Shown: positions 7,602 to 50,914 of the stretch, in pieces
Layout: each line of letters opens with the position of its first letter
How positions within the stretch are numbered: the first letter of the stretch is position 1
Source of the DNA: Tepidiformaceae bacterium
GTDB taxonomy: Bacteria > Chloroflexota > Dehalococcoidia > Tepidiformales > Tepidiformaceae
Length of the DNA stretch: 64,000 nt
Reading direction: 5' to 3'
Assembly: GCA_965202995.1 (NCBI GenBank)
Contig: OZ241861.1
Location: forward strand, 483,299-547,298
Made by a program: the position numbers and the translations under genes
The notes under the pieces: model-generated
What the model was told of the DNA's origin: nothing
The model's database searches: none
The model's input: only the letters and a program-made list of their open reading frames with translations

Positions 7602-7621
7602 CCCCTCGCCAGATACAGCTA

Positions 7622-7951: not shown

Positions 7952-8204
7952 GCCGGAAGCGTACTCCCTTGAGGCCGTGCGGGCGCGGATTCAGCGGTGC
8001 GCCGAGGGCGACGGCAGCCCCGCCGAGCTCGACGACTGGCTCTTCCCCCTCCTCTGGCCGGACGAGGGCGACGCCGACGCGCGCGAACTCGCGTGGAGCG
8101 CCGAACTCCTGCTCATGGAGCTGGGCCGCGGACACTGGACCGAAGCGGCGTTCCGGGAGCAGCTGGCGCTGCTCATCCAGCCCCGCGCCGTCGCCGGACG
8201 CTAG
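7950..8204 (+). CDS. hypothetical protein, 84 aa
   Basis: ORF-track 7950..8204 has strong GC3 bias typical of native coding sequence. Its ATG overlaps the divergent ATG of 7622..7951 within CATG (7949-7952). Its stop shares CTAG (8201-8204) with the convergent ThuA-like gene. Confidence 0.5.
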   Translation: MPEAYSLEAVRARIQRCAEGDGSPAELDDWLFPLLWPDEGDADARELAWSAELLLMELGRGHWTEAAFREQLALLIQPRAVAGR

Positions 8205-9022
8205 CCCCGCGCCCAGGCCCGCGCGTCCTCCGACGCCACCCAGTGCAGCGCGTTGTGCAGCAGACGCCGGAAGCCCGCGTTCGCGTAGCAGTTCGGGCCG
8301 TCCCCGATCTGCATCGCCACCACCGGCGCGTTCCCGCTCTTCTTCGCCCACACCACCAGGTCGCTCCCCTCCGGATGGTCCCACTCCGCCTGCTCGGCGG
8401 CGGGCGCCAGCGGCGGCGGATTGAAGTTCTCCCGCACCATCGGGTAGTCCGTGCGCATCAGCGGCAGGATGCCCGGCTGCGTCTCGAACGCCTTCGACGT
8501 CAGGTACAGCTCGTCCTCGATCTCGAACGGCTCGACGCCCTCCAGCACGGGGTGGCCGATGGCCGCGGGATCGGGCGAGACGACGCCGCGCGGGTTGCCC
8601 CGCGGATCGTGCGCGCCGCCGCGATAGCCCGAGCCCGGCGTCGGCTCGCCGAACACCTCGCCTTGCGTGAGCAGGAACGACGTGCCGCTCACGTCGCGCC
8701 AGCCCGCCCACGCCGGCCACTGCACGATGGCGTGGTTGAGCATGACGATGCCCGTGCCGCGCTCCAGCAGCGCCGCGATGCTGCGCTGGTACTCCTCCGG
8801 CGCGGGCGCGAAGCTGGCCCCCCCGTCCGGACTCTCCGTGCCCCACATGTCGTAGAAGAGCACGGCCTCGTACGCCGCCGCGTTCTCCGGCCGCAGCATC
8901 ACCTGCGCCGCCGGCTGCTCCACCTGCGTCGTCTGCAGCTCCGGATTCTCGTCGAAGATGGCGTAGAAGCCGTTGTAGTCGAAGGGATGCCCCTTCGTCA
9001 CCACCAGCGTGTTCACGGCCAT
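8201..9022 (-). CDS. ThuA-domain (trehalose-utilisation-like) protein
   Basis: This is the C-terminal 273 codons of ORF-track 8201..9907. Start ATG 9022 (MAVNTLVVTKGHPFDYN...) has GGAAGGA at 9037..9031. The C-terminal ANAGFRRLLHNALHWV is typical of ThuA-like proteins. Confidence 0.65.
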   Translation of the reverse strand: MAVNTLVVTKGHPFDYNGFYAIFDENPELQTTQVEQPAAQVMLRPENAAAYEAVLFYDMWGTESPDGGASFAPAPEEYQRSIAALLERGTGIVMLNHAIVQWPAWAGWRDVSGTSFLLTQGEVFGEPTPGSGYRGGAHDPRGNPRGVVSPDPAAIGHPVLEGVEPFEIEDELYLTSKAFETQPGILPLMRTDYPMVRENFNPPPLAPAAEQAEWDHPEGSDLVVWAKKSGNAPVVAMQIGDGPNCYANAGFRRLLHNALHWVASEDARAWARG

Positions 9023-9036
9023 GAGTGCGCTCCTTC

Positions 9037-9855
9037 CTATCCCGCGGGGATGGCGTCGTGGGCCGCGAGGATGGCCGCGAAGCGCGCCTCCACCGCGGGC
9101 TGCGTCTCCGGATGGCTGAGCACGTACAGCTCGTTCCCCCGCACCGCGCGCACCACGCGCGCCGCCAGGTCCTCCGGCTCGATGATCTCCTGCGGCACCC
9201 CCTCGCCCTCCACGCGGTTGGGCGGCTCCGGCCCGCCGTACTCCCCGGGGCGGTTGCGCCCGGCCTCCACGATGCGCGAGCGCACGCCCCCCGGACACAC
9301 CACCGACACGCCGATGCCGTGCTCCGCCAGGTCCAGCGCCAGCGCCTCGCTCAGCCCCACCACGCCGTACTTCGCCGTCGTGTAGGAGACGATGCCCGGC
9401 GTGGCCGCGGGCACCAGCCCCGCGATCGACGCCGTGTTCACGATGTGCCCCCCCTCCCCCTGCGCCACCATGCGCGGCAGGAACGCCTGCACCCCGTGAA
9501 TCACCCCGTACAGGTCCACGCCCAGCACCCAGTCCCAGTCCGCCTCCGTCATGTCCTGCGCCAGCCGGAAGGTGACCACGCCCGCGTTGTTGCACAGCAC
9601 GTGCGCCCCCCCGAACTCCGCCCACGCCGCGTCCGCGAGCGCCTCCAGCGACGCCCGCTCCGTCACGTCGTTCTCCACCGCGATGGCGCGCATCCCCGCC
9701 GCCTCCACCGCCGCCACGGCCTCCGCCGCCATGTCCATCTCGATCTCGCCGATGACGACGTTCATGCCCTCGTTGGCGAAGGCCGCGGCCAGCGCCTTGC
9801 CGATGCCGCCGCCGCCGCCCGTGACGACCGCCGTGCGCCCGCGAAGTTCTTCCAC
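9037..9855 (-). CDS. short-chain dehydrogenase/reductase (SDR)
   Basis: This is the C-terminal part of ORF-track 9037..11607. Start GTG 9855 (VEELRGRTAVVTGGGGGIGKA) follows GGGAGG; GTG 9864 is an alternative start. TGxxxGxG and YxxxK (YTTAKYG) motifs are present. Confidence 0.8.
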   Translation of the reverse strand: MEELRGRTAVVTGGGGGIGKALAAAFANEGMNVVIGEIEMDMAAEAVAAVEAAGMRAIAVENDVTERASLEALADAAWAEFGGAHVLCNNAGVVTFRLAQDMTEADWDWVLGVDLYGVIHGVQAFLPRMVAQGEGGHIVNTASIAGLVPAATPGIVSYTTAKYGVVGLSEALALDLAEHGIGVSVVCPGGVRSRIVEAGRNRPGEYGGPEPPNRVEGEGVPQEIIEPEDLAARVVRAVRGNELYVLSHPETQPAVEARFAAILAAHDAIPAG

Positions 9856-9921
9856 GCGAACCACCTCCCGTTGGCGCGGCAGTGTAGCACGCCGCGCCCC
9901 CGCGCAAGCCCCTGCGGCGGC

Positions 9922-9927
9922 TATACT
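9922..9927 (+). promoter_or_regulatory. -10-like hexamer TATACT immediately upstream of hsdR (possible leaderless mRNA)
   Basis: TATACT at 9922-9927 and ATG at 9937, with no Shine-Dalgarno sequence between them. It is the only AT-rich hexamer in the divergent intergenic region. Confidence 0.35.
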
Positions 9928-9936
9928 GCTCCGCCC

Positions 9937-12279
9937 ATGCTCAACGAGGCCGATACCCGCGCCAAGCTGGTCGATCCCGTCCTGCGCGGGCGCGGCTGGG
10001 TGGAAGGGCTGATCAGGCGCGAGCAGACGCCCGGCCGCATCGACATCGTGGGCGCGGGCGGACGGCGCGGACGCGGGCGCTCCACCGACTACCTCCTCCA
10101 TGCCCGCGTGGACGGCAAGCGCACGCTCCCCATCGCCGTGCTGGAGGCGAAAGCCGAGGAGTACGCGCCCGACCACGGCCTCGAACAGGCGAAGCGCGAC
10201 GCGCGCCTCCACCACGTGCCCTTCGCCTTCGCCACCAACGGCCACCTGTTCGTCGAGCACGAGTTCGCCACGGGCCGCACGACCGCCCCCGCGCCGCTGA
10301 CCGAATTCCCCGGCTGGGACGACTTGCTCCGGCGCTACCTGAAGCAGCGGGAGATCGACCTCACGCGCAAGGAGGCCGCGCCGCTCCTGAAGCCCGCGCG
10401 CGCGCACGACCGCCCCTACCAGTACGCCGCCGTGCGCGCCGTGCTCGAACGCATCGCGCGCGGAGAGAAGCGCCCCCGCGCCCTGCTCTCCCTCGCCACG
10501 GGCACGGGCAAGACGCGCATCGCCGTCAGCCTGCTGCGCGCCCTGGACCGCAGCGGCCAACTCCGCCGCGCCCTCTTCGTCTGCGACCGCAAGGAGCTGC
10601 GCGATCAGGCCCTCGGCGCGCTCCACAACGAATTCAAGGCCGACGCCGCCAAGGCCACCACGCGCAACCCCGAGAAGAACGCCCGCGTCATCGTCGCCAC
10701 CTACCAGACGCTGGGCATCGACGACGAGGGCGGCGACGACTCCTACCTCTCGCGCCACTACCCGGAGAACTACTTCAGCCACATCATCATCGACGAGTGC
10801 CACCGCTCCGCCTGGGGCAAGTGGCGCGCCGTGCTCGACCGCAACCCCGACGCCGTCCACATCGGCCTCACCGCCACGCCCCGCACCTGGGAGCGCGTCG
10901 GCGATCCCGACGACATCGAGACCGAGGACGACGACGCGATCACGCGCGACAACCACCAGTACTTCGGCGAACCCGTCTACGAGTACTCCATCGCCGACGC
11001 CATGGACGACGGCTGGCTCGCCGCCATGAAGCTCGTGCGCGCCGAAATCATCACCGCCGGGCAGCGCGAGCGCGAGGAAGGCGTCAGGAGCGGCGAACTC
11101 GACCCTGATCGCATCCGCGACGCTCGCACGGGCGCGCCCGCGGGCGTCAGCGACATGCCCGAAATCTACCGGGCCGCTTCCATCGAACAGCGCCTCCGCA
11201 TCGAGGAGCGCGTCGAGGAGATGTGCCGCGACCTCTTCCAGCGCCTCCTCGAATCGGGCGGACCGCGCCAGAAGACGCTCATCTTCTGCGCCGGCGACGC
11301 CCATGCCGACCGCGTCGCCGCCGAAATGGGCAACCTCTACGCCGAATGGGCCGATCGCGCGGACGAGCGCCCCGTCGATCCCTACGCCTTCAAGTGCACC
11401 GCCCAGGGCGGGGCCGAGCTGCTCTCCGACTTCAAGGGCGCCGCCTCCCGCGCCTTCGTCGCCTGCACCGTCGACCTCATCACCACCGGCGTCGACGTGC
11501 CCCGCCTCCAGAACGTCGTCTGGTTCCGCTACCTCAAGTCCCCCATCCTCTTCCACCAGATGCTGGGACGCGCCACCCGCATCCACGCCGAAAGCGGCAA
11601 GCTCCACTTCACCGCCTACGACTACACCAACGCCAGCCGCCTGCTCGACGCATCCCTCGCGCAGCGCCCCGAGACCGAGCGCGAACGCAAGCCCGACGGC
11701 GAGCGCGAGGAGCGCGACCCGCCCCGCATCTTCGAGGCCGAGGGCGTCGAGGTCCGCATCGAGCCCGAGGGCGTGGTTGTCATGGTTCCCGAAGGCGGTA
11801 CACTGCGCCGCGTGACGCTCGACGACTACCGCGCCGGCATCGCCGAACGCATCCTCGCCGAAGCGGCCGGCATCGACGCCTTCCGCGAACGCTGGATCGC
11901 GCCCGAGGAACGCCGCGCCATGCTCGATAGCCTGCCGCAGGGCTCGGCCAGCGCCGACATCCTGCGCGCCGCCAGCGACATCGACGAGGGCTGCGACGGC
12001 TACGACGTGCTCGCCAGCGCCGCCTTCGGCGAGACGCCCCGCCCGCGCCTCGAACGCGCCGACCGCTTCGAGGAGACGGAGGAGCGCGGCATCCTGCGCG
12101 CCATCGCCCGCCAGTTCGGCTACGGCGGCACGGACGCCCTCGAAAGCAGCGGCCTCTTCCAGACCCCGGGTGTGCGAGCGGCGGGCGGCCTCGCCGCGCT
12201 CGAACCGGAAGCCGCGAACCGCTTGCTCGACCTGAAGCGCCGCGTGCTCGCCACCGACGCGGAGTGGCGCGACGCATGA
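9937..12279 (+). CDS. hsdR: type I restriction enzyme R subunit (EcoEI-like C-terminal domain)
   Basis: ATG 9937 is in frame with ORF-track 9025..12279. N-terminus MLNEADTRAKLVDPVL. Helicase motifs SLATGTGKT, IIIDECHR and LTATP are present, and the C-terminus is EcoEI_R_C-like. Confidence 0.9.
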   Translation: MLNEADTRAKLVDPVLRGRGWVEGLIRREQTPGRIDIVGAGGRRGRGRSTDYLLHARVDGKRTLPIAVLEAKAEEYAPDHGLEQAKRDARLHHVPFAFATNGHLFVEHEFATGRTTAPAPLTEFPGWDDLLRRYLKQREIDLTRKEAAPLLKPARAHDRPYQYAAVRAVLERIARGEKRPRALLSLATGTGKTRIAVSLLRALDRSGQLRRALFVCDRKELRDQALGALHNEFKADAAKATTRNPEKNARVIVATYQTLGIDDEGGDDSYLSRHYPENYFSHIIIDECHRSAWGKWRAVLDRNPDAVHIGLTATPRTWERVGDPDDIETEDDDAITRDNHQYFGEPVYEYSIADAMDDGWLAAMKLVRAEIITAGQREREEGVRSGELDPDRIRDARTGAPAGVSDMPEIYRAASIEQRLRIEERVEEMCRDLFQRLLESGGPRQKTLIFCAGDAHADRVAAEMGNLYAEWADRADERPVDPYAFKCTAQGGAELLSDFKGAASRAFVACTVDLITTGVDVPRLQNVVWFRYLKSPILFHQMLGRATRIHAESGKLHFTAYDYTNASRLLDASLAQRPETERERKPDGEREERDPPRIFEAEGVEVRIEPEGVVVMVPEGGTLRRVTLDDYRAGIAERILAEAAGIDAFRERWIAPEERRAMLDSLPQGSASADILRAASDIDEGCDGYDVLASAAFGETPRPRLERADRFEETEERGILRAIARQFGYGGTDALESSGLFQTPGVRAAGGLAALEPEAANRLLDLKRRVLATDAEWRDA

Positions 12280-12887
12280 ACCCGGGCGACCCGCTCCCCG
12301 ACGGCTGGCGCTGGACCACGCTGGGGGAGTGCTGTGTTCAGGAACGAAAAGCGATCACCAGCGATAGACCCGAGTATACGGAGATGCCTTACCTGGGGCT
12401 GGAACATATTGAAGGAAGCACCGGGAGGATTCTGGTCAGCGAAAAGGCGGCGCGCGGATCTGAATCCACGAGCAACAACTTTTGCTTCACTCCTGAACAC
12501 GTTCTCTACGGGAAACTCCGTCCGTACCTCAACAAGGTGGCCCTGCCCGATTTTTCGGGGCGTTGCAGCACGGAGATTATCCCGCTCCGCCCTGTCGATA
12601 TGGACCGCGGCTTTCTGGCATGGTTCCTTCGCAGGAGCGATACGGTTGAGTACGCCATGCGGGGCAAGACTGGTTCACGAATGCCTCGCGCATCCATGAA
12701 GGAACTCCTGCTGCTCCCCATCCCCCTGCCGCCGCTGGCCGAGCAGCGCCGCATCGTGGCCGCGCTCGAAACGCGACTCGCCGCCGCAGAGCGCGCCCGC
12801 CACGCTGCCCTCTCCCAGCTCAATGCGCTGGAGGCGATGCCAGCCGCCCTGCTGAGGAAAGTGTTTGAACGCGAGGCCAAAATCTGA
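12276..12887 (+). CDS. hsdS: type I R-M specificity subunit, proximal half (TRD1 plus central conserved region), ending at an in-frame TGA
   Basis: ATG 12276 overlaps the hsdR stop (ATGA). PDGWRWTTLGE ... LPIPLPPLAEQRRIVAALE ... is the typical HsdS TRD and conserved helix. Stop TGA 12885-12887. Confidence 0.85.
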   Translation: MNPGDPLPDGWRWTTLGECCVQERKAITSDRPEYTEMPYLGLEHIEGSTGRILVSEKAARGSESTSNNFCFTPEHVLYGKLRPYLNKVALPDFSGRCSTEIIPLRPVDMDRGFLAWFLRRSDTVEYAMRGKTGSRMPRASMKELLLLPIPLPPLAEQRRIVAALETRLAAAERARHAALSQLNALEAMPAALLRKVFEREAKI

Positions 12888-12901
12888 TTTTGGCCTCGCG
12901 T
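12869..12901. other. perfect 15-bp inverted repeat (3-nt loop) containing the hsdS-interrupting stop codon
   Basis: acgcgaggccaaaat / ctg / attttggcctcgcgt. TGA 12885-12887 spans the loop and the first stem base. It is followed by the tandem 9-mers tcgaaattt x2 (12901-12918) and a T-rich stretch. Confidence 0.85.
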
Positions 12902-13001
12902 CGAAATTTTCGAAATTTGTCGTGTTTTCACCGGTGGTCCCGCTCCACAAGGCAATCAGTACTTTGGGGCGTCCGGTCCGCTCTTCTTTCGCGTTCGGGA
13001 C

Positions 13002-13487
13002 TTGTCGGTGAGTGGTCGGACCACAGCGCTGGCAACAGCCCGTGATCGACTCTCCCCGTCTGCGTTGGATACGCTCAAACTGGTTCCCGTCCAGCCGAAC
13101 ACACTGGTCTTCCCGAAGAGCGGAGCCGCAATTGCCACGAATAACCGAGCCCTCACCACAGTGCCCGGATACTTGGTCAGTCACCTCATGGCGCTTGAAG
13201 CCGGAGATTCAGTCCTGCCACTCTGGCTGTACTATGCATTCTGCACACTGGACATGACCGATTTCTCGGATAATACAGGGTACCCAAGCCTCCGCAAAAC
13301 AACGGTCGAGAGGATTCAAATCCCTCTCCCGCCCATCGACGAACAGCGCGCGATCATCACCGAACTCGAACGGGAAATGGCGGCCACGGAGCAGGCGCGT
13401 ACGGCGGCGCGCGAGCGGCTGGCGCTTGCCGAAGCGCTGCCGGGTGCTATCCTGCGGCGCGCTTTCGCGCCCGGAGCCTCCGCATGA
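13002..13487 (+). CDS. hsdS: type I R-M specificity subunit, distal half (TRD2 plus C-terminal conserved region); possibly an untranslated pseudogene fragment
   Basis: ORF-track 13002..13487 (TTG start). The same frame is open from 12888, directly after the TGA, and reads FWPRVEIFEICRVFTGGPAPQGNQYFGASGPLFFRVRDL, a typical TRD start. IQIPLPPIDEQRAIITELE forms the distal conserved helix. The stop overlaps the hsdM ATG. Confidence 0.7.
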   Translation: MSVSGRTTALATARDRLSPSALDTLKLVPVQPNTLVFPKSGAAIATNNRALTTVPGYLVSHLMALEAGDSVLPLWLYYAFCTLDMTDFSDNTGYPSLRKTTVERIQIPLPPIDEQRAIITELEREMAATEQARTAARERLALAEALPGAILRRAFAPGASA

Positions 13488-15022
13488 CCTCGGCCATCGC
13501 CTCCCAGTCCTCGCTCGACGCGCGCATCAAGACCGTGTGCGACGTGCTGCGCCGCTCGAACTGCGCTGGCGCGCTCCAGTACGTGCCGGAGCTGACGTGG
13601 CTGCTTTTCCTGCGCTTCCTCGACGAGCGCGAGGAACGGGAGGCGCGGGACGCGGCGGCGCTGGGGCGGCGGTACGAGGCATCGATCCAGGAGCCCTTCC
13701 GCTGGCGCGACTGGGCCGCGCCCGACGGCGTGAAGCGCAACCTGCTGCAGCATGGGGCGGGGAACTCCGTTTTCGCGTTTCTCGAGGGCGACCTGCTGCC
13801 GTACCTCCACGAGCTGGGGAACAACGGGGGCACGCCCCGCCAGCGGCTCATCGGCCAGATTCTCTCCAGCGTGGACGGCACGCGCGTGGACACGGAGCGC
13901 AACTTCTACGACGTGGTGGACCTCGTGCACGAGATTCGGTCGGGCGAGATGGACGACCAGCACCTGTTCCCGCTGTCGGGGGCCTACGAGGGCCTGCTGC
14001 TCTCGATGGGGGAGAAGAACAACGACGGCGGGCAGTTCTTCACGCCGCGCGAGGTGGTGCGGGCGATGGTGCGCGTGGTCGCCCCGACGGTGGGCGAGAC
14101 GGTGTTCGACCCGTGCTGCGGGACGGGCGGCTTCCTGGCGCAGGCCTTCGAGCACATGCGCGCGAACCTGCCCCCGGAGGCGACGGGCGAGGCGCTGGAG
14201 CGGCTGAGCGGCGAGACGTTCTACGGCACGGAGAAGGACACCCTCGTCTACCCGATCGCGCTGGCCAACCTCGTGCTCCACGGCATCGACGAGCCGCACA
14301 TCCAGCACGCCAACACGCTCACGCGCGCGGAGGAGTACGGCGGGCTCTTCGAGGACGCGCCGGACCAGTTCGACGTGATCCTCACGAATCCCCCGTTCGG
14401 CGGCAAGGAGGGCGCGGACGCGCAGAACCACTTCGACTACCCGACGTCCTCGACGCAGGTGCTCTTCCTGCAGGAGGTGATCGAGAGCCTGAAGCGGGGC
14501 GGGCGCGCGGGCTTCGTGGTGGACGAGGGCCTGCTCTTCCGCACGAGCGAGCGGGCCTTCGTGCAGACGAAGCGCAAGCTGCTGGACGAGTGCGACCTGT
14601 ACTGCGTGGTGAGCCTCGCGCCGGGCGTGTTCACCTCGGCCGGTTCGGGCGTGAAGAGCAACCTGCTGTTCTTCAACAAGGGGCAGCCGACGGAGCGCAT
14701 CTGGTACTACGAACTGTTCCCGCCGGAGTGGACCGACCGGAAGGGGCAGACGCGGCCGGGCACGCGCTTCACCAAGAAGTACCCGCTGACGCTGGCGCAC
14801 TTCGAGGAGTTCTTCGCGCTGCTGCCGGAGCGGGCCGATTCGGAGCGCTCGTGGACGGTGACGCGGGAGCAGGTGGAGGCGAACGGCTACGACCTGAAGG
14901 CGGTCAACCCGCACCGCCCGGACGACTCGGACACGCGCACGCCGGAGGAGCTGCTGGCGGAGATCGCGGGCCACGGGCGGGAGCTGGAGTCGGCGCTCGC
15001 GGAGCTGCGGTCGGCCTTGTAG
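13484..15022 (+). CDS. hsdM: type I R-M N6-adenine DNA methyltransferase subunit
   Basis: ORF-track 13484..15022. It has an ATGA overlap with hsdS. Motifs FDPCCGTGGFL (SAM binding) and NPPFGG (catalytic) are present. Confidence 0.92.
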   Translation: MTSAIASQSSLDARIKTVCDVLRRSNCAGALQYVPELTWLLFLRFLDEREEREARDAAALGRRYEASIQEPFRWRDWAAPDGVKRNLLQHGAGNSVFAFLEGDLLPYLHELGNNGGTPRQRLIGQILSSVDGTRVDTERNFYDVVDLVHEIRSGEMDDQHLFPLSGAYEGLLLSMGEKNNDGGQFFTPREVVRAMVRVVAPTVGETVFDPCCGTGGFLAQAFEHMRANLPPEATGEALERLSGETFYGTEKDTLVYPIALANLVLHGIDEPHIQHANTLTRAEEYGGLFEDAPDQFDVILTNPPFGGKEGADAQNHFDYPTSSTQVLFLQEVIESLKRGGRAGFVVDEGLLFRTSERAFVQTKRKLLDECDLYCVVSLAPGVFTSAGSGVKSNLLFFNKGQPTERIWYYELFPPEWTDRKGQTRPGTRFTKKYPLTLAHFEEFFALLPERADSERSWTVTREQVEANGYDLKAVNPHRPDDSDTRTPEELLAEIAGHGRELESALAELRSAL

Positions 15023-30339: not shown

Positions 30340-30570
30340 ATGGTCAACCCGCTCCCCACGATCGTCTTCGATGTCCTGCTCGTCGGAACGGCGGCGACGC
30401 TGTTCGCGGCGGTGATCCGCCCGATGGCGTCGGCGGGGATGCGGGCGGGCCTCCGCCGGGGCCCGGCGCGGTGGCTGGCGCGCGTTCGGGGCGGGACGCG
30501 CCCCGACGGCCGGCGTCGCGCGGCTCCCCTCGCCGCGCGGCGCCGGACCCGGCGCGCGGACGCGGCCTAG
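30340..30570 (+). CDS. possible small membrane protein (one TM helix plus an Arg-rich tail)
   Basis: An internal ATG of ORF-track 30310..30570 gives MVNPLPTIVFDVLLVGTAATLFAAVI. A TTGACA at 30281-30286 lies upstream. The 3' end overlaps the relA stop. It could be a GC artefact. Confidence 0.25.
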   Translation: MVNPLPTIVFDVLLVGTAATLFAAVIRPMASAGMRAGLRRGPARWLARVRGGTRPDGRRRAAPLAARRRTRRADAA

Positions 30571-32759
30571 CGCGCCGTGCGGTGGCAGCTGCGCACGCCG
30601 CGGATCGTCTCCATGCGCGTGAGCAGCCGCGAAATCTGCGCGATGCCGCTCGTCTCCAGCGTGGCCAGCACCGTCACCGTGCCGTTGCCGTTCCGCGTCG
30701 TGGCCACGTCCACCATGTTCACGTCCTCGGCGGCCACGATGGCGCTCAGGTCGCGCAGCAGCCCCACGCGGTCCCAGGCGTCCACGCGGATGGCCGCCGG
30801 GTAGCGCCGCTCCTCGCCCGCGTCCCAGTCCACGTCGATGAGCCGGTCGCGCTCGCGCTCGTGCAGCACGTTGTGGCAATCGGCGCGGTGCACGGTGACG
30901 CCGCGGCTGCGCGTCACGTAGCCGCGCACGCTGTCCCCGTGCACCGGGTTGCAGCAGCGCGCGAGGCTCGTTTCGAGGCCGTTCACGCCGAACGCGCGCG
31001 GCCCCGCGCCGTCGCCCCGCGCGGAGGGACGGCCCACGGGGATATCGTCCGCCTCGTCCCGCTCCCGCCGCTGCAGCAGGGCGCTCGCCTTGCGCGTGAG
31101 CGACTCCACGCCGATGTCGCCGTAGCCGATGGCGGCCAGCAGATCCTCCCAGCTCTTGCCCGGATAGAGGGCCAGCACCTCGTCGCGGTGGTCGCTCAGG
31201 TCGAGGGCGAGGCGGCGCATCTCGCGCTCCAGCATCTCGCGCCCGCGCTCCACGCTCTCCGCGCGCTGCCGCTTGCGGAACCACTGGCGCACCTTCTGCC
31301 GTCCGTTGGCCGTGCGCAGGTAGCCGAGGCTCTCGCTCAGCCAGTCGCGCGAGGGGCCGTTGCGCGAGCGGCTGCGCATGATCTCGACCACGTCGCCGTT
31401 CTGCAGGACGGCGTTGAGCGGGGCCATCTTGCCGTTCACCTTGGCCCCGATGGTCTGGTGGCCGAGGTCGGTGTGGATGCGGTAGGCGAAATCGAGGGGC
31501 GTGGCCCCGGCGGGCAGGTCGAGCACGTCGCCGCGCGGCGAGAGCGCGAACACCTGGTCGTCGAACACGTCCGTCTTCACGCTCTCGACGAACTCCTCCG
31601 CGCCCGCCAGCTCGCGCTGCCACTCCAGCAGCTGGCGCAGCCAGGCGATGCGCTCCTCGTCCCCGGCGGTGCGCTCGCCGCCGCCCTTGTAGCGCCAGTG
31701 CGCGGCCACGCCGTACTCGGCCACGCGGTGCATCTCGCGCGTGCGGATCTGCACCTCGAGGGGGCGCGCGCCGGGGCCGATGACGGTCGTGTGCAGCGAC
31801 TGGTACATGCTCGCCTTGGGGCTGGCGATGTAGTCGTCGAACTGCCCCGGCAGGGGGCGCCAGGTGGCGTGCGTCACGCCCAGCGCGGCGTAGCAGGCGG
31901 CCACGTCGTCCACCAGCACGCGCAGCGCCAGCAGGTCGTAGATCTGGTCGAACGACTTGGCCTCGCGCCCGTAGCGCCGCGCCTTCTGGTGGATGGAGTA
32001 GATGTGCTTGGCGCGGCCCGTGACCTCGGCCTCGATGCGGGCGTCGTCGAGCTGCAGGCGCAGGCCCGCGGCCACGTCCTCGATGTAGCGTTCGCGCGCC
32101 AGGCGCGTGGCGTCGAGGCGCGCCGCGATCTCCTGGTAGCGCTCCGGCTCGAGGTAGCGGAAGGCGAGATCCTCCAGCTCCCACTTGATCTGCCAGATGC
32201 CGAGGCGCGTGGCCAGCGGCGCGAAGATGTCCATCGTCTCCCGCGCGATGCGCCGCTGCTTCTCCGGGCGCAGGGCCCAGAGCGTGCGCATGTTGTGCAG
32301 GCGGTCGCAGAGCTTGATCAGCACCACGCGCACGTCCGCCGCCATGGCCAGCAGCATCTTGCGCAGGTTGCGCGCCTGCGCCTCGTCGCCGTCCTCCTCG
32401 CCCACGCGCAGGGGCAGCCGGTCGAGCTTCGTCAGCCCCTCCACCAGCCGCGCCGCGTCCTCGCCGAAGCGCGCCGCGATCTCGGCGTTGGGCACGCCGC
32501 AGTCCTCCTGCACGTCGTGCAGCAGCGCGGCCACGATGGACGCCTGGTCCAGCTCCAGCCCGGCCACCAGCCGCGTGACCTCCACGGGATGGGTCACGTA
32601 GGGCTCGCCCGTGCGCCGCAGCTGGCCCGCGTGGCTCTCGGCGGCGAAGGCGCAGGCCTCGGCGATGAGGGGGATGCGCTCCTCGGGCAGGTAGGCGCGC
32701 ACGCGGTCGAGCAGGGCGGCCGCCCCGGGGGATTCCCGGAGTTCCGCCGCGACGCTCAC
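30567..32759 (-). CDS. relA: bifunctional (p)ppGpp synthetase/hydrolase (RelA/SpoT homologue)
   Basis: GTG 32759 is in frame with ORF-track 30567..32972. It has the HD domain (HDVQED), the synthetase domain (YIASPKASMYQSLHTTV), and TGS and ACT regions. Confidence 0.92.
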   Translation of the reverse strand: MSVAAELRESPGAAALLDRVRAYLPEERIPLIAEACAFAAESHAGQLRRTGEPYVTHPVEVTRLVAGLELDQASIVAALLHDVQEDCGVPNAEIAARFGEDAARLVEGLTKLDRLPLRVGEEDGDEAQARNLRKMLLAMAADVRVVLIKLCDRLHNMRTLWALRPEKQRRIARETMDIFAPLATRLGIWQIKWELEDLAFRYLEPERYQEIAARLDATRLARERYIEDVAAGLRLQLDDARIEAEVTGRAKHIYSIHQKARRYGREAKSFDQIYDLLALRVLVDDVAACYAALGVTHATWRPLPGQFDDYIASPKASMYQSLHTTVIGPGARPLEVQIRTREMHRVAEYGVAAHWRYKGGGERTAGDEERIAWLRQLLEWQRELAGAEEFVESVKTDVFDDQVFALSPRGDVLDLPAGATPLDFAYRIHTDLGHQTIGAKVNGKMAPLNAVLQNGDVVEIMRSRSRNGPSRDWLSESLGYLRTANGRQKVRQWFRKRQRAESVERGREMLEREMRRLALDLSDHRDEVLALYPGKSWEDLLAAIGYGDIGVESLTRKASALLQRRERDEADDIPVGRPSARGDGAGPRAFGVNGLETSLARCCNPVHGDSVRGYVTRSRGVTVHRADCHNVLHERERDRLIDVDWDAGEERRYPAAIRVDAWDRVGLLRDLSAIVAAEDVNMVDVATTRNGNGTVTVLATLETSGIAQISRLLTRMETIRGVRSCHRTAR

Positions 32760-32839
32760 CCGCCCGCTCCCGCGCGCTTTCTCATTGGACGCCCCTCGCC
32801 CTATCCTAGCACCGACGCCCCCATGGGGCGGGAGCGGAC

Positions 32840-34123
32840 ATGAGCGCACGGTTCCAGACGCCGCGGGGCACGGAGGACGTGCTCCCCGACGAGCAGCCGC
32901 GCTGGCGCCGGATGGCGGCGGCGGCGGACGAGATCGCGCGCCTCTTCGGCTACGAGCGCATCGACACGCCATCCTTCGAGGCCGCCGCCCTCTTCGAGAA
33001 GGGCGCCGGCGACGCCACCGACATCGTCGAGAAGGAGATGTACGCCTTCGAGGATCGCGGCGGCGAGACCCTCGCCCTCGCGCCCGAGGCCACGCCCGCC
33101 ATCTGCCGCGCCTGGCTGGAGCACGGCATGGCCAGCCGCCCCCAGCCCGTGCGCCTCTACACCACCGCGCGCATGTTCCGCTACAGCCGCCCCCAGCTGG
33201 GCCGCCTGCGCCAGTTCACGCAGTTCGACTGCGAGGCCATCGGCTCCGGCGGCGCGCTGGCCGACGCCGAGCTGATCGAGCTGCACTGGCGCTTCTGCGA
33301 GCGCCTCGGCCTGCGCGACCTGGAGCTGCGCCTCGGCAGCATCGACGACCCCGCGCCGCGCCGCGCCTACCTCGACCGCCTGCGCGACCACTACCGCCCC
33401 CTGCGCGACCGCCTCTCGCCGGACAGCCAGCGGCGGCTGGAGCGCAACCCCCTGCGCCTGCTCGACAGCAACGACGAGCGCGACCGCGAGCTGCGCGCGG
33501 GCGCGCCCACGCCCCTCGACCGCCTGAGCGACGACGCCGCCGCCCACTTCGCCGCCGTGCGCGAGGCGCTGGACGCGGCGGGCGTGCCCCACACCGTGGA
33601 CCCCCTGCTCGTGCGCGGCCTCGACTACTACAACCGCACCGTCTGGGAGATCGTCCCCCGGGGCGACGAGCGCGCGCAGGGGTCGATCGGCGCGGGCGGG
33701 CGCTACGACGGCCTCATGGAGACGCTGGGCGGCCCCCCCACGCCCGCCGTCGGCTTCGCCGCGGGGCTGGAGCGCATCGTCATCGAGATGAAGCGGCAGG
33801 GGCTGGACGGGCCCGCGCCGCCCGCGCCCGACGCCTTCGTGATCCACGCCGGGGAGGGCGCCGCGCGGGCCGCCGCGCGCGCCGCCGCCGAACTGCGCGC
33901 GCGCGGGCTGGCCGCCGTCACGGGCGAGCCCGGACGCTCCCTGCGCGCCCAGCTGCGCCGCGCCAACGCCAGCGGCGCGCGCGTGGCCGTCATCATCGGC
34001 GCCGACGAGCTGGCGCGCGGAACCGCCGCCGTCAAGGACCTGCGTGGCGACGGCGCGCAGGAGGACGCCCCCCTCGACGCGCTGGCGGAGCGGCTGGCCG
34101 CGCGCCTCGCGGACGCGGGCTGA
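32840..34123 (+). CDS. hisS: histidine--tRNA ligase
   Basis: ORF-track 32840..34123. RGTEDVLP, MFRYSRPQLGRLRQFTQF and GGGRYDGL motifs are present. Confidence 0.93.
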   Translation: MSARFQTPRGTEDVLPDEQPRWRRMAAAADEIARLFGYERIDTPSFEAAALFEKGAGDATDIVEKEMYAFEDRGGETLALAPEATPAICRAWLEHGMASRPQPVRLYTTARMFRYSRPQLGRLRQFTQFDCEAIGSGGALADAELIELHWRFCERLGLRDLELRLGSIDDPAPRRAYLDRLRDHYRPLRDRLSPDSQRRLERNPLRLLDSNDERDRELRAGAPTPLDRLSDDAAAHFAAVREALDAAGVPHTVDPLLVRGLDYYNRTVWEIVPRGDERAQGSIGAGGRYDGLMETLGGPPTPAVGFAAGLERIVIEMKRQGLDGPAPPAPDAFVIHAGEGAARAAARAAAELRARGLAAVTGEPGRSLRAQLRRANASGARVAVIIGADELARGTAAVKDLRGDGAQEDAPLDALAERLAARLADAG

Positions 34124-46087: not shown

Positions 46088-47583
46088 CAGGAGCGCTCCG
46101 GCGGGGGCGGAGGCGGGCCGTCGCCGGACCCCACGGGCGTCGCGCCCATGGCCCGCGCCGCCTCCGCCAGATGCCCGCCCCGCGCGGGCGGACGCGCGGG
46201 CGCGGCCTTCTCGATGCGCTCCACGGCCAGCGTCACCGGGCGCTTCAGCAGCTCCCCCGCCTTCTGCTCCACGAGCGTGCGCCCGTCGTTGTCGATCTTC
46301 TGCAGGTGGATGGGATGGTAGAAGCCGAGCCGCAGCTCGTCCCCGTCCATGGCCAGCACCTCGCAGGAGCCGTTCAGCCACGCGGCGAGCGTGGGCTGGG
46401 CCATCTTGCAGCGCGTGTAGAGCTCGTCGAGGAAGCGCTCCTCGCGGCTGCGCTCCTCGCCGCCAGCGGCGCCCGCGGGGCGGCGCGGACGCGCGGGACG
46501 GCGGGGACGGCTCTCGCGCTGGCCGTCCGCGCGGCGCTCCCCTTCCGGAGCGGCGGCGGGCGCGACGGCGCGGGCGGGGCCCAGCACGGCGGCGGCGCAG
46601 GCCACCTCCAGCGGCACGGGGCTGCCCGGATCGCGACGGAAATCGGCCCCCGCCAGCTCCGCCACCGCCGTCGTCAGCGTCTCCACCTCGGGGGCGCGCT
46701 CGCGGGCGGCGGAGAGCAGGCGCTCGCGCAGCGTATCGATCGTCTCGCGCGTGAAGCGGGCGATGTCGAGGCCGTCGGCGGCCACCTCGCGGGCGAGCGC
46801 GAGCGCCGCGCCGAGATCCCGCGCGGCGAGCGCCCCGGCCAGCTGCTCCGTGCGCTCGTCGCGCACCAGCCCCAGTCCCTCCAGCACGTCGTCGGTGCCC
46901 GGCGCGGGGCCGTAGGTGGCCGCGATCTGCTCCAGCAGCGTGATGGCGTCGCGCAGCGCCCCGCGCGCCTCCCGCGCGATGGCCAGCAGCCCCTCCTCCG
47001 GCACCGCATAGCCCTCGCGCCCGGCGATGTAGGCCAGCCGCTCCACCATCGCCTCCACGGCCACGCGCCGGAAATCGAAGCGCTGGCAGCGCGAGACGAT
47101 GGTCGGCGGCAGCTCGTGCAGCTCCGTCGTGGCGAGGATGAAGATGGCGTGCGGCGGCGGCTCCTCCAGCGTCTTCAGCAGCGCGTTGAAGGCCCCCGTG
47201 GTGAGCATGTGCACCTCGTCCAGCAGGTACACCTTGCGGTCCAGGTCGCTGGGCGCGAACGCGATCTTGTCGCGCAGCTCGCGCACGTCGTCGATGCCGC
47301 GGTTGCTGGCCGCGTCCATCTCGATCAGGTCGAGCGCCGTCCCGCGGTTGATGGCCTCGCAGGCCGCGCAGGCGTTGCACGGATCGCCCTCCTCGCGCTC
47401 GCGGCAGTTCACCGCCTTCGCCAGGATGCGCGCCGTCGTCGTCTTGCCCGTGCCGCGCGGCCCCGCGAAGAGGTAGGCGTGCGCCACCTGGTCCGTGATC
47501 AGCGCGTTGCGCAGCGTGGACACCACGTGGTCCTGGCCGACCACCTCGTCGAAGCCGCGCGGGCGCCACTTGCCGTAGAGCAC
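46087..47583 (-). CDS. dnaX: DNA polymerase III subunit gamma/tau
   Basis: GTG 47583 (VLYGKWRPRGFDEVVGQDHV...) follows GGAAGGGGG and is in frame with ORF-track 46087..47814. Walker A GPRGTGKTT, the zinc module CREREEGDPCNACAAC and DEVHML are present. Confidence 0.9.
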   Translation of the reverse strand: MLYGKWRPRGFDEVVGQDHVVSTLRNALITDQVAHAYLFAGPRGTGKTTTARILAKAVNCREREEGDPCNACAACEAINRGTALDLIEMDAASNRGIDDVRELRDKIAFAPSDLDRKVYLLDEVHMLTTGAFNALLKTLEEPPPHAIFILATTELHELPPTIVSRCQRFDFRRVAVEAMVERLAYIAGREGYAVPEEGLLAIAREARGALRDAITLLEQIAATYGPAPGTDDVLEGLGLVRDERTEQLAGALAARDLGAALALAREVAADGLDIARFTRETIDTLRERLLSAARERAPEVETLTTAVAELAGADFRRDPGSPVPLEVACAAAVLGPARAVAPAAAPEGERRADGQRESRPRRPARPRRPAGAAGGEERSREERFLDELYTRCKMAQPTLAAWLNGSCEVLAMDGDELRLGFYHPIHLQKIDNDGRTLVEQKAGELLKRPVTLAVERIEKAAPARPPARGGHLAEAARAMGATPVGSGDGPPPPPPERS

Positions 47584-47696
47584 GATTCCCCCTTCCCCCC
47601 AAGCATACGCAAGGGCGGGGATCCGTGCGGACCCCCGCCCCGCGTTTTCGCCCGAACCGGACCCGCCCGACGGCGGGCCCGCGCGATGCGGCGGCG

Positions 47697-47900
47697 CTAG
47701 GCCGCGCGCGCCAGCTTCTGGCGGAGACGGTCGATGCGCAGTTCCTCGTCCGCGATCTCGCGGGCGAGCGCCTCCTCGGCGCGGATGGCGTCCCACTCCC
47801 CGCGGAACCGCCATTCCGGCGAATTCAGCAGCAGCGAGCGCTCCAGAAGGACCGACCGGGCCAGTTCGTGCTCGAACACGGTTTCACCTCCGGCGAGCAT
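47697..47900 (-). CDS. possible small protein, 67 aa, downstream of the riboswitch candidate
   Basis: ATG 47900 is in frame with ORF-track 47697..48209. It has high GC3 and a helical, charged sequence (EEALAREIADEELRIDRLRQKLARAA). It is the only minus-strand ORF between the aptamer and dnaX. Confidence 0.35.
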   Translation of the reverse strand: MLAGGETVFEHELARSVLLERSLLLNSPEWRFRGEWDAIRAEEALAREIADEELRIDRLRQKLARAA

Positions 47901-48040
47901 CGGCGGCGGCGTCCCCGCCACGGGAACGGCACCGGGCGTCGTCGTCGGGGCCGCTGGCCGTCTCGGGACGGTTCGGGTCCGGGCGTTCGCGTGCGAACCG
48001 GAGCGAAGCGGTCGAGAGACCCCCACGATTGAGGTCCCTC

Positions 48041-48152
48041 CCACGCCTGCGAGGTTAGCTGACGGGCTGCGACCGGAGGTGTCGCCCGCGGATGCGGTTC
48101 GCCCCGATGTGGCGGTTCCCCCGCTCCCCCGAAGGGGATTCGGCGGCAGCGG
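48041..48152 (-). promoter_or_regulatory. candidate c-di-AMP riboswitch (ydaO/kimA class)
   Basis: The minus-strand RNA reads CGCCGAAUCC (48145..48136), CCCC-UUCG-GGGG hairpin (48137..48126), AGCGGGGGAACC (48125..48114), UCGGGGCGAACC (48107..48096), GGGCGAC, and GUCAGCUAACCUCGCAGGCG (48063..48044). These match, in order, the blocks I recall from Bacillus subtilis ydaO: CGCUUAAUC, hairpin, AGCGGGGGACCC, UUGGGGUGAAUCC, GGGCGA, GUCAGCUAACCUCGUAAGCG. Confidence 0.6.
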
Positions 48153-48211
48153 ATGCTGCCCCCACCACCGTGCCCGCCCCCGCGTTAACGCGCAAGCGCG
48201 GGGCGCCACGC

Positions 48212-50914
48212 CTACTCAAGCAGCTCCCCCGCGATCACTCCTATCCAGATCTTCTCGCCCGTTTCCACGAGGTACTGCCCGGTCTCGATGCGAGCGACGG
48301 GATACGTCGGAAGCGGGCGCACCACCACGCATCCCCCGTCGAGCCCACTGGCATGGACAGGGGAATGGAAATCGCGGTTCTCGAATCCGTGTGGCTGCGA
48401 TTCCACGGAAAGCTCCTCCACGTCGATGGGATAGACATGGAGGAAGAAAGTGGGGACATCCACGGAAAAATCACAAGCATTATTACTCACATAGATAATA
48501 TCCTGATCCAAAAGATACACATCCCAGCCGGAGTTAGTCAGAACGGAGTTTCCCAGTGCATCCAGGAAGTCCCTGCTGATCTCCGCAGGGTTACGATCCG
48601 AAAGAAAGATCACTCCCCTCCATATCTTCTCACTCGTTTCCAAATGGTATCGCCCTGTCTCGATGAGAGCGACAGGATACGTCGGAAGTGAACGCACGAC
48701 TACGCATCCATCGTCGAGCGCATCGGCATAGAAAGGGGAATGGAAATCGCGGTTCTCGAATCCGTGTGGTTGCGACTCCGCAGGAAGATCTTCTCTATCG
48801 ACAGGATGGATATGGAGGAAAAAGGGATGGGTATCCACGGAGAATTCGCAGGTGTCATCAGAAACATAGATAATGTCTTGATCCGAAAGGTACACATCCC
48901 ATCCGGAATTGCTCAGAACCGGGAGGCCCAGTGTGTCCAGGAAATCCCTGCTGATCTCTGTGGATCTACGTTCTCTGGCAAAATCGATGGCACCATACCA
49001 AATTCTGTCATCACCTGAGAATTGTCCTGTCACAATCCGGGAAAAGGGATACCGAGGCAGTGGATGAAGAGCAACACACGTCCCTTCAAGATTGACAGAA
49101 TTTTCCGAGAAAAAGAAGCTTTGATTCTCAAACTTCGCTCCCTGCGATTCCAAGGGAAGATCGTCGATGGTGGAGGGAAAGATGTGAACAAAGAAGGTAG
49201 GGCGTGTTTCTTCGCAGTTGTCGGTAACATAGAGAAGCGAATCGTCGGAGCGATACACTTCGTATTCCTTTCTCTCCAGAGTGGGATATCCTAAATGATC
49301 CAGTATCTCGGGAAATGTTTCTGCTGTATTGTGATAAAGATCGATTAACACTTGGGAATCATGCACCAAATAGAGTGTAATATCCCCGGTCACTTTTGCG
49401 TCATAAAGGATGTTGGTATTTCCTTGAATATTAGCAAGTTTTTCAAGCAAAACGATATCATTCACTTCTGCATTAAAGAATGCGATCCAAAGACGCCTGC
49501 TTTCTCGTAAATCGAGCAGGTCATCCAGACATGATTTCTTGTTGCACACTCTGTAGTATTTCGGGATATCTCCTCCGTAGTGTATTTTTATAAAAGGCAT
49601 CCCTCCTATGAAAGGACCCGGTTCTCCTTCTGTCCAGAAAATGATATCCCCTTCTTCTCGCCATTCTTCGACACTGGCGATGGCAACTTCAAATGACAGG
49701 GGTTCCGAAAATAATCCATCTTCATTCGTGATAGAAAGTACGCCAATGAATCCTATGACAAGCACTGATCCAGAACATATTATAGCCCTGATGGAAATTT
49801 TCAAGGAACCAGTTAGATTGGTAAGCAATTCCGAAGCTACCGGGATACACTGGGAAAATGCCACTATGATGACTGGTCCCCATAAGGTGGAATGTCGGTT
49901 GGCGCCAATGGGGTATTCCTGAAATATCGCGGCACTCAATGCAATAACCATACTGATCAGGAACAGGATTGTGAGTTCGCTTCTTCTTCTAATATGCTTG
50001 CCAAGAGCGAAAAGGGCAATACTGAATCCAATCAGGGCAAAAAATGGAATGATTTCAACATGGTATCCAAGAATTTCTCTGAATTTATCGTAGCTGAATT
50101 GAACAATTTCTCCCACGTTTGTCAATCTTCCCTGATAGTAATCATCCTGAAGATAACCATCACGCGCCCATCCAGCCCTCCATCCATCAGTATGGTACTG
50201 CAGAGTGCTGAACCATGCCGTAACGCTCCCCGCCGACAGCGCCAACACCGGCGCTATCGAGAACGAGACCGTATCCCTAATCCCAGCCATCCACTTCCCC
50301 CTTCCCCAGCCTGTATCGAGGCCCCGCTTCATGACGATCATCAGCACCATCGCCACGCCGAGCAACACCAAGCCATATTGCAGAAGCGGACCGACAAACA
50401 GCGTTACTGGTAGCAGCCATCGCTTTTCCCCTTTCAGGTACCACAGCGCCCCGGCTAGCATGATCACCACCAGCAGCGCGTCTATCGAATACTCCCGCAC
50501 ATCCCGTGCCTCATGAATCGCGGCCACGGACACCGCCATGAGAACACCAGCGGGGAAGGCCACCGACCGTCTGACCCCGGCCAGGGGGAGCAACACCACG
50601 AGCGCGGCCACCGTGAGCGTGCTCGCCACCGCCGGCGCCAGCCGGATGCTGAGACGGGATACTTCAATCTTCTGGATGAGCCACAGGCCAATCGGCCAGA
50701 GGATCGGCGACGAATTCTGGGTACGCGTGTTCTCGATGAGCTCCCCGAACGACCCTTGTGCATTGAGAGATGCAATCGCTTCATCAGCACGGAGACCATC
50801 GGAAGGAAGGGCATAGAACCGCGGCACGGCAGCGGCAACGACCAGAACCACGCATGCGACATAGTACAGCGTCGATTCCCTGGGCCACCGCAGCCCCCGG
50901 AGCCGTTCCCACAT
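48212..50914 (-). CDS. ArnT/PMT-like (GT39/GT83-type) membrane glycosyltransferase fused to a large C-terminal region with three tandem repeats of about 125 aa
   Basis: ATG 50914 (MWERLRGLRWPRESTLYYV...) is in frame with ORF-track 48212..51001, giving 900 aa. The N-terminal part is a polytopic membrane region with the pattern RADEAI...SSPILWPIGLW...RLAPAVASTL, typical of PMT_2/ArnT. The last 369 aa are three repeats. Confidence 0.75.
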   Translation of the reverse strand: MWERLRGLRWPRESTLYYVACVVLVVAAAVPRFYALPSDGLRADEAIASLNAQGSFGELIENTRTQNSSPILWPIGLWLIQKIEVSRLSIRLAPAVASTLTVAALVVLLPLAGVRRSVAFPAGVLMAVSVAAIHEARDVREYSIDALLVVIMLAGALWYLKGEKRWLLPVTLFVGPLLQYGLVLLGVAMVLMIVMKRGLDTGWGRGKWMAGIRDTVSFSIAPVLALSAGSVTAWFSTLQYHTDGWRAGWARDGYLQDDYYQGRLTNVGEIVQFSYDKFREILGYHVEIIPFFALIGFSIALFALGKHIRRRSELTILFLISMVIALSAAIFQEYPIGANRHSTLWGPVIIVAFSQCIPVASELLTNLTGSLKISIRAIICSGSVLVIGFIGVLSITNEDGLFSEPLSFEVAIASVEEWREEGDIIFWTEGEPGPFIGGMPFIKIHYGGDIPKYYRVCNKKSCLDDLLDLRESRRLWIAFFNAEVNDIVLLEKLANIQGNTNILYDAKVTGDITLYLVHDSQVLIDLYHNTAETFPEILDHLGYPTLERKEYEVYRSDDSLLYVTDNCEETRPTFFVHIFPSTIDDLPLESQGAKFENQSFFFSENSVNLEGTCVALHPLPRYPFSRIVTGQFSGDDRIWYGAIDFARERRSTEISRDFLDTLGLPVLSNSGWDVYLSDQDIIYVSDDTCEFSVDTHPFFLHIHPVDREDLPAESQPHGFENRDFHSPFYADALDDGCVVVRSLPTYPVALIETGRYHLETSEKIWRGVIFLSDRNPAEISRDFLDALGNSVLTNSGWDVYLLDQDIIYVSNNACDFSVDVPTFFLHVYPIDVEELSVESQPHGFENRDFHSPVHASGLDGGCVVVRPLPTYPVARIETGQYLVETGEKIWIGVIAGELLE
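48215..49321. repeat. three tandem coding repeats (about 369, 375 and 363 nt) encoding an unrecognised domain
   Basis: The repeat units are 48215-48583, 48584-48958 and 48959-49321. The first two share long identical runs, e.g. the 36-nt aggggaatggaaatcgcggttctcgaatccgtgtgg at 48359-48394 and 48734-48769 (offset 375). The third unit is recognisable only at protein level. Confidence 0.85.

Follow-up and report, generated by a model that had tools for sequence, protein, structure and literature searches.

A probable c-di-AMP riboswitch of the ydaO/kimA class preceding an orphan small-protein gene in Tepidiformaceae

Organization of the locus

We describe here a structured RNA element in a 64-kb stretch of DNA (the window) from the genome of a member of the Tepidiformaceae (Chloroflexota), with an overall GC content of 72%. 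The element is very probably a functional riboswitch for cyclic di-AMP (c-di-AMP), situated in the 5′ leader of a gene for a small orphan protein. All of the features described are on the minus strand unless noted otherwise. In the order in which they would be transcribed, the locus includes a gene encoding a 929-amino acid protein (51001–48212), an intergenic gap with the riboswitch aptamer, a small open reading frame (ORF) encoding a protein of 60 amino acids (VFEHELARSVLLER...LARAA; 47879–47697), and the genes dnaX (GTG 47583 to 46087), ybaB, recR (45724–45122) and recO (45120–44314), followed by one for a Zn-ribbon protein. An earlier note on this DNA had described the gap as non-coding, which the present analysis bears out. 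From the stop codon of the 929-amino acid gene (TAG, 48214–48212) the gap extends 311 nucleotides (nt) to an in-frame ATG at 47900 and 332 nt to a GTG at 47879, and the aptamer lies within it, 150 nt 5′ of the small-ORF start and on the same strand.

Identification of the aptamer

The entire window was compared with Rfam 15 using cmscan. The sole match above the gathering score is to RF00379, at 48155–48029, with a score of 71.2 bits (gathering score 38), an E-value of 1.5e-14, and an alignment that covers the model from end to end (positions 1–134 of 134). The earlier note had placed a ydaO/kimA-class element at 48041–48152 and had proposed this comparison; its span falls within a full-length match at nearly twice the gathering score, and the class call is supported. 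The sequence blocks on which it had relied—CGCCGAAUCC, a CCCC-UUCG-GGGG hairpin, AGCGGGGGAACC, UCGGGGCGAACC, GGGCGAC, and GUCAGCUAACCUCGCAGGCG—can all be read from the minus strand, and they follow one another in the order claimed.

The aptamer core, from P1 to P1, occupies 48145–48044. Parsing of the cmscan alignment shows standard pairs at all 25 of the consensus base pairs in helices P1 to P7, which are P1 (CGCC/GGCG), P2 (UCC(CC)-UUCG-(GG)GGA), P3 (GCGGGG/CCUCGC), P4 (CG/CG), P5 (GGG/CCC), P6 ((C)CGC/GCG(G)) and P7 ((G)CGAC/GUCG(C)). The core blocks CGCCGAAUCCC, GCGGGGGAACC, GGGGCGAAC and CCCGUCAGCUAACCUCGCAGGCG agree with the consensus (the GAA junctions, GGGGGAaCC, and GuCAGCUAACC), and the departures are minor, with GG for UA at the P6/P7 junction and CAG for GAA on the 3′ side of P7. 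Judged from the sequence, the element almost certainly belongs to the ydaO/kimA c-di-AMP riboswitch class, solved members of which bind two c-di-AMP molecules per RNA.

The hairpin loop of P7 (ACCUCCG, 48080–48074) is invariant in every homolog and contains the anti-Shine-Dalgarno-like sequence CCUCC (48079–48075), the 5′ strand of a pseudoknot. Its 3′ partner is a GGAGG at 48041–48037, here called the proximal GGAGG, which is likewise invariant, follows P1 after 2 nt, and occupies the position of the Rfam consensus tail GaGaGg; the P1–P7 and pseudoknot fold that the earlier note had proposed as a check can be threaded onto the sequence. The two strands are complementary and show no covariation. 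The window sequence CCCGUCAGCUAACCUCGCAGGCGU is identical at 23 of 24 positions to CCCGUCAGCUAACCUCGCAAGCGU in the crystallised ydaO RNA (4QLM), in which the P7 loop (CUCCUUC) and the 3′ tail (GAAGGAG) are likewise complementary and for which a pseudoknot of 5–6 base pairs (bp) is mentioned (PMC5393176).

Conservation among related loci

The small protein recurs in metagenome assemblies at 50–95% identity and in five GTDB species representatives, all of them Tepidiformaceae bacterium (Chloroflexota); three more diverged metagenome contigs were added to the comparison. RF00379 is found at 59–71 bits just upstream of the small ORF in all 18 of the scanned loci that encode the protein, a set that includes some genomes present twice via two collections. 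The gene 5′ of the aptamer varies among loci, encoding a protein of 510, 726, 772, 900 or 929 amino acids, or a cupin, and in the strain alignment sequence conservation starts just before the leader, immediately upstream of TTGCGC.

Examined over the full proposed structure of 60 pairs, which includes the hairpins P0, H3 and H4 described below, 99.1% of alignment cells are paired, compared with 41–57% when the partners are slid by 1–3 columns, and the helices in the family alignment are 96–100% paired. A test of covariation had been suggested by the earlier note, and compensatory pairs are indeed present, in P7, H3 and H4 in the family alignment and in P0, P6 and H3 among the more diverged loci. 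Covariation support for the aptamer itself is limited, most of its pairs never varying within this narrow lineage.

The small ORF

The ORF reported by the ORF finder (48209–47697) spans the aptamer, and a coding appearance is limited to its last 60 codons. Within these, the GC content at codon positions 1, 2 and 3 is 0.79, 0.43 and 0.90, comparable to dnaX, recR and recO; upstream of the small-ORF start it is flat at about 0.70–0.81. Codon-position GC is flat in all three frames of the stretch between aptamer and ORF, and likewise in the in-frame extension of the ORF across the aptamer. The aptamer-to-ORF distance is 178–183 nt among the homologs and does not vary in multiples of three. Flat codon-position GC and non-triplet length variation together indicate that the gap is non-coding, and a reading of the leader as coding sequence or as a conserved upstream ORF, the frame and length of which are unconserved, was rejected. 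The better-supported start of the small ORF is the GTG at 47879, with a GGAGG (47891–47887) 7 nt upstream.

Over the first 34 codons, a comparison of 15 distinct alleles gives 9 variable sites at codon position 1, 7 at position 2 and 17 at position 3, and many of the variants are synonymous (for example CAC/CAT, AAC/AAT, CCG/CCC and GAA/GAG). By its codon-position GC and its synonymous changes, the small ORF is a real gene under purifying selection. Codons 5–13 (47867–47839, 27 nt, GAACTGGCCCGGTCGGTCCTTCTGGAG) are near-invariant as DNA in the 15 alleles, with one synonymous variant, while synonymous changes accumulate elsewhere; this constancy points to a constraint on the RNA in addition to hairpin H4.

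AlphaFold predicts two helices, at residues 2–18 and 21–59, with a predicted local distance difference test (pLDDT) value of 92. The protein has no match in Pfam or NCBIfam, none among PDB sequences, and none among PDB folds using Foldseek, and a profile run against 1.84 billion representative proteins returned 10 family members only. It ends in ...RAA or ...QAA in all homologs (47697–47705 in the window) despite a poorly conserved C-terminal half. The terminal Ala-Ala resembles the ssrA-type degrons of ClpXP, and if it acts as a degron the protein would be short-lived.

The earlier note had listed the usual targets of the class, K+ or osmolyte transporters and cell-wall hydrolases. The apparent target here is instead this lineage-restricted 60-amino acid protein.

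The dnaX cluster and its probable independence

Between 113 and 190 nt separate the small-ORF stop codon from dnaX among the loci, and this interval contains two hairpins. T1 (GGGCCCGCC-GUCG-GGCGGGUCC, 47680–47659) differs in stem sequence between clades with the pairing kept. T2 (47640–47601) has a covarying 12-bp stem at 47640–47613 and a U-containing tail, UUGCGUAUGCUU, and is a candidate terminator that lacks a clean U tract. Within the T2 tail is a −10-like sequence at 47607–47602, the probable dnaX promoter, which reads TATGCT in the clade of the window and TATACT in the other clades.

The close succession of genes raises the possibility that the riboswitch governs the whole cluster of small ORF, dnaX, ybaB, recR, recO and perhaps the Zn-ribbon gene by read-through, and c-di-AMP would then be tied to replication and recombinational repair. 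The genes share one strand, the gaps between them are short, the order riboswitch, small ORF, dnaX is kept wherever contigs extend far enough, and the terminator scan called none of the canonical U-tract type ahead of dnaX; c-di-AMP was, moreover, discovered with DisA, a DNA-integrity scanning protein. Several features of the related loci nevertheless make such control rather unlikely. The ORF and dnaX are separated by two GC-rich hairpins that covary and by a −10-like box that is conserved. In loci L027–L031 (62–74% DnaX identity), the series dnaX-ybaB-recR-recO-Zn-ribbon is intact behind ybeY, which lies 75–155 nt upstream, and neither the small ORF nor RF00379 was found; RF00379 is absent at all six dnaX loci with 62–77% DnaX identity, and a tie between riboswitch and dnaX across the wider Chloroflexota was accordingly dropped as unsupported. 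Nor did a full-text literature search connect c-di-AMP riboswitches with dnaX.

Locus L026 (77% DnaX identity), from a related metagenome-assembled genome, is instructive in this respect, as it lacks approximately 1.2 kb relative to locus L012 (L026 1793–2500 compared with L012 4534–6315). The missing DNA would have held the aptamer and leader, approximately 61 small-ORF codons, a cupin gene and the 3′ portion of an AP-endonuclease gene, and what remains is the tail of the ORF (...IKLDRAA*) fused to the truncated AP-endonuclease gene, followed by T1, T2, TCCGTTCTATACT with its −10 box, and an intact dnaX. (In L012 itself, dnaX and ybaB are called as one 621-amino acid fusion at 6380–8245, and are separate genes in all other loci; the fusion is probably an assembly indel.)

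Because both the more distant relatives and L026 keep dnaX without the aptamer and without all or most of the ORF, dnaX does not need them, and the small ORF is likely to be the direct target of the riboswitch. Aptamer and ORF co-occur and are co-absent, the ORF being 60–74 codons long, approximately 180 nt downstream of the aptamer and under purifying selection, and the pair is a separable module that occurs in a single subclade of the Tepidiformaceae. The dnaX-ybaB-recR-recO genes are probably a separate transcription unit, although a degree of read-through into dnaX may occur because the U tract of T2 is not clean.

Structure of the leader

A candidate promoter at 48195–48167 consists of a −35 hexamer, TTGCGC (48195–48190), a 17-nt spacer, and a −10-like CACGGT (48172–48167). 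The hexamers are conserved and the spacer is variable; in CACGGT the A at position 2 and the T at position 6 are conserved, and transcription is predicted to start near 48160. The earlier note had offered GTTAAC as a −10 element; the hexamer is where it was placed, at 48189–48184, at the start of the variable spacer, and is one candidate only, TTGCGC/CACGGT being the better fit to the alignment.

An extra 5′ hairpin, P0 (GGCAGC-AUCC-GCUGCC, 48160–48145), lies outside the Rfam model and abuts P1. It is paired in all homologs, and in locus L023 a compensatory change from C-G to U-A gives GGUAGC/GCUAUC.

Three hairpins 3′ of the aptamer core are predicted by RNAalifold. The first, H1, is a 10-bp stem formed by GAGGGACCUC (48040–48031) and GGGGGUCUCUC (48023–48014) that is invariant in all homologs and has no U tract behind it. 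Its first four pairs use bases of the pseudoknot GGAGG, so that H1 and the pseudoknot are mutually exclusive. Full H1 folds at −16.6 kcal/mol and H1 with the GGAGG blocked at −7.9 kcal/mol, and the duplex of P7 loop and proximal GGAGG is calculated at −10.2 kcal/mol. By these values H1 and the pseudoknot would be nearly isoenergetic, the balance that a ligand-tipped switch requires.

The proximal GGAGG could itself be a ribosome-binding site, serving an upstream ORF or an N-terminal extension that starts in the H1 loop, with the pseudoknot occluding it and the main ORF coupled to it. A GUG, UUG or AUG does occur 6–10 nt after the proximal GGAGG in all 13 of the homologs compared (48026–48024 in the window), in four homologs the resulting frame closes no more than 7 nt from the main start, GUGA overlaps included, and in six it shares the frame of the main ORF. 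Its frame and length are unconserved, however, ranging from 1 codon in L023 (a minimal AUG-UAG start-stop) to 25 in L024; the leader lacks a codon-position GC signature and its length steps are not multiples of three; H1 would bury the site in the ligand-free state too; and long open frames are predicted by chance at 72% GC. We regard this arrangement as highly improbable.

H3 (47934–47904) has 13 bp and a UGG loop and folds at −20.1 kcal/mol; it shows a compensatory change from U-A to C-G, with further support from L025. H4 (47902–47894 paired with 47874–47867) holds both the Shine-Dalgarno sequence, the GGAGG of 47891–47887 within CCGGAGGUG (47893–47885), and the GTG start codon (47879–47877) inside its loop. 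Two pairs of its 8-bp stem show compensatory switches from G-C to A-U, which on the 3′ side fall at the third positions of codons 2 and 4 and are synonymous. Over 6 bp in all homologs, the P7 loop is complementary to this second, real Shine-Dalgarno sequence, with a calculated duplex energy of −10.9 to −12.1 kcal/mol, and in the window the complementarity is perfect over 9 nt, between CCGGAGGUG and CACCUCCGG of P7.

Other candidate interactions and signals in the leader were considered and set aside. A 15-nt long-range complementarity (48157–48143 with 47910–47896) includes a P0-loop part that is unconserved in the homologs. An 'anti-P1' pairing of GGCGU with ACGCC, suggested by RNAalifold, is weak, with 5 bp only, and L023 has a changed ACGCC box. 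A pairing of CCGCCAC in P4 with GUGGCGG in the H3 loop is unsupported; by our estimate, chance alone would give about 13 perfect 7-nt complements in a 366-nt sequence of this composition. A Rho-utilisation signal is unpersuasive at a leader C/G ratio of only 1.1–1.6.

Proposed mechanism and regulatory output

In the mechanism that we propose, a transcript beginning near 48160 would fold the aptamer, and c-di-AMP would lock P1 together with the pseudoknot between CCUCC of the P7 loop and GGAGG at 48041–48037. The proximal GGAGG is also the base of H1, so the ligand-bound state and full H1 would exclude each other and thereby constitute the switch; c-di-AMP would stabilise P1 and the pseudoknot at the cost of H1, altering translation initiation at the small ORF. 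The route from this choice to a Shine-Dalgarno sequence 150 nt away is a link that the folding does not establish.

Translation of the small ORF is the most likely output, and by analogy with characterised members c-di-AMP may repress it, a reading that we favour and hold tentatively. An output at translation is favoured by a leader without an intrinsic terminator (the terminator scan found no site resembling one in 47400–48500) and by the presence of the Shine-Dalgarno sequence and GTG in the covarying H4, the Shine-Dalgarno sequence being complementary to the same P7 loop. It is favoured also by the nlpC leader of Corynebacterium glutamicum, the one terminator-less member with CUCC/GGAG complementarity of this sort to have been studied by experiment, which is reported to behave translationally and to be repressed by c-di-AMP; and repression is favoured because all characterised members of the class are OFF switches (PMC9960051, PMC6488665).

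Several observations weigh against this account. No diadenylate cyclase and no protein with a DisA_N domain was found among the approximately 47 window ORFs scanned, a search confined to the window; synthesis of c-di-AMP by the host is assumed. The class of the target gene is atypical for RF00379, and its usual gene associations, with transporters of K+, amino acids and osmolytes and with enzymes of cell-wall remodelling (PMC7266159, PMC3766115), are not seen here. Neither TTGCGC/CACGGT nor T2 was called by the consensus scans for promoters and terminators, and GTTAAC is an alternative to the former. When nine homologs were folded under constraints that imposed the aptamer and kept the pseudoknot bases from pairing elsewhere, and compared with unconstrained folds, there was no consistent change in the accessibility of the Shine-Dalgarno sequence, a change being seen in the window sequence alone. 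Lastly, the pseudoknot, H1 and the Shine-Dalgarno sequence are all invariant among the loci, and covariation therefore cannot confirm them or tell which GGAGG the P7 loop uses.

The complementarity of one loop to two GGAGG sites also admits an ON switch, in which, without ligand, H1 would hide the proximal GGAGG and the P7 loop (ACCUCC) would block the Shine-Dalgarno sequence in the H4 loop, and c-di-AMP would draw the P7 loop into the pseudoknot and free it. The pairing that this calls for is retained as 6 bp in all homologs and reaches 9 bp in the window, its energy is comparable to that of the proximal pseudoknot, the covariation of H4 makes display of the Shine-Dalgarno sequence in a loop appear selected, and the unconstrained fold of the window does pair the P7 region with it. 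However, that pairing is not predicted in eight of the nine homologs folded, a seventh pair is not kept, the loop G to A change being uncompensated, and any GGAGG-type pseudoknot strand implies complementarity to a strong Shine-Dalgarno sequence, so that the match may be a by-product. With the characterised members of the class all acting as OFF switches (PMC9960051; PMC6488665), an ON switch here seems improbable.

Repression might alternatively be exerted on transcription, with the ligand promoting premature termination, either Rho-dependent or intrinsic to the polymerase, within the 150-nt leader and with no canonical terminator. Termination of this sort has been discussed for Streptomyces rpfA, high-GC relatives lack canonical terminators (PMC9960051), and action far upstream is known, the kdp terminator of Bacillus thuringiensis lying 143 bp before kdpF (PMC6488665); the leader beyond H1 is, in addition, mildly C-rich. 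The C/G bias is weak, however, a highly structured leader (H3 at −20 kcal/mol) disfavours Rho loading, the GACGACGAC box is unconserved in L023, no terminator-like site was found in the region scanned, and the Streptomyces case, as cited in PMC9960051, is reported to be Rho-independent. We consider premature termination unlikely, and translational repression remains the output that we prefer.

Neighbouring genes

The upstream 929-amino acid gene lies in a low-GC island, with approximately 50% GC against 72% for the window and a third-position GC content of 0.57. Its product has weak PMT/Agl23-like matches only, and the part encoding the C-terminus contains a 375-nt tandem repeat (48233–48958, 1.9 copies, 79% matches). 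Sister strains hold other genes in this slot, for the proteins of 510, 726, 772 or 900 amino acids mentioned above, and it is probably a strain-variable, horizontally acquired island of glycosylation type.

Type I restriction-modification genes lie on the plus strand (9025–15022), with a ResIII/helicase HsdR-like gene at 9025–12279 and an HsdM N6-methylase gene at 13484–15022. The GC content dips to 65% at 12001–14000, between these two genes, and to 55% at 4001–6000. A full-length RelA/SpoT homolog with HD_4, RelA_SpoT, TGS and ACT domains is encoded at 30567–32972 on the minus strand; it represents another nucleotide second-messenger system, 15 kb from the riboswitch.

Significance and comparison with known systems

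The element adds a confidently identified c-di-AMP riboswitch in the Tepidiformaceae (Chloroflexota), which is unsurprising and leaves the understanding of the riboswitch class unchanged; a non-exhaustive literature search found no published c-di-AMP riboswitch from Tepidiformaceae. For the orphan family of small proteins, membership in a c-di-AMP regulon would be the first functional clue. A more far-reaching scenario, to which we give little credence, is that the module specifies a new c-di-AMP-controlled effector: a two-helix protein of approximately 60 amino acids with an invariant N-terminal helix and a ...RAA/QAA end, present in one Tepidiformaceae subclade, always heading dnaX-ybaB-recR-recO, and able to couple c-di-AMP to replication or recombinational repair, with two GGAGG sites competing for the P7 loop in a manner not described before and perhaps even the first ON-type c-di-AMP riboswitch. 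The locus also provides a compact example, from nature, of a c-di-AMP riboswitch that lacks a terminator and probably acts on translation, in which the same anti-Shine-Dalgarno-like loop could take either the real ribosome-binding site or a decoy GGAGG as its partner; a loop-choice mechanism of this kind has been hypothesised, and is unproven, for C. glutamicum nlpC.

The ydaO/kimA RNAs of the Bacillus subtilis kimA leader and of Thermoanaerobacter (PDB 4QLM/4QLN) share with the window element the seven-helix aptamer and conserved core, the pseudoknot between the P7 loop and a tail just after P1, and a 5′ leader location on the gene's own strand. The window element differs in having no intrinsic terminator behind the aptamer, an extra P0 abutting P1, a structured leader of approximately 150 nt before the ORF, and a 60-amino acid orphan protein rather than a K+ or osmolyte transporter as its target. 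The kdpFABC riboswitch of B. thuringiensis is similar in its long distance to the start codon and is of OFF type, whereas it has a canonical hairpin and U-tract terminator and precedes a K+ transporter operon (PMC6488665). Streptomyces coelicolor rpfA resembles the window in its lack of a canonical terminator and its high-GC host of Gram-positive type, but its riboswitch is reported to lower transcript levels and its target is a secreted muralytic enzyme, as related in PMC9960051.

The c-di-AMP riboswitch of C. glutamicum nlpC, also from a high-GC host, is terminator-less and reported to be translational, with evidence for translational control of the first gene only, and it has a CUCC whose complement, GGAG, lies in the ribosome-binding site, a pairing that has been proposed to operate there (PMC9960051). 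Its target is an NlpC/P60 cell-wall peptidase (PMC9960051), in contrast to the orphan protein of the window, where there are two GGAGG sites, the proximal one in H1 and the distal one, the real Shine-Dalgarno sequence, in H4 and 150 nt from the aptamer.

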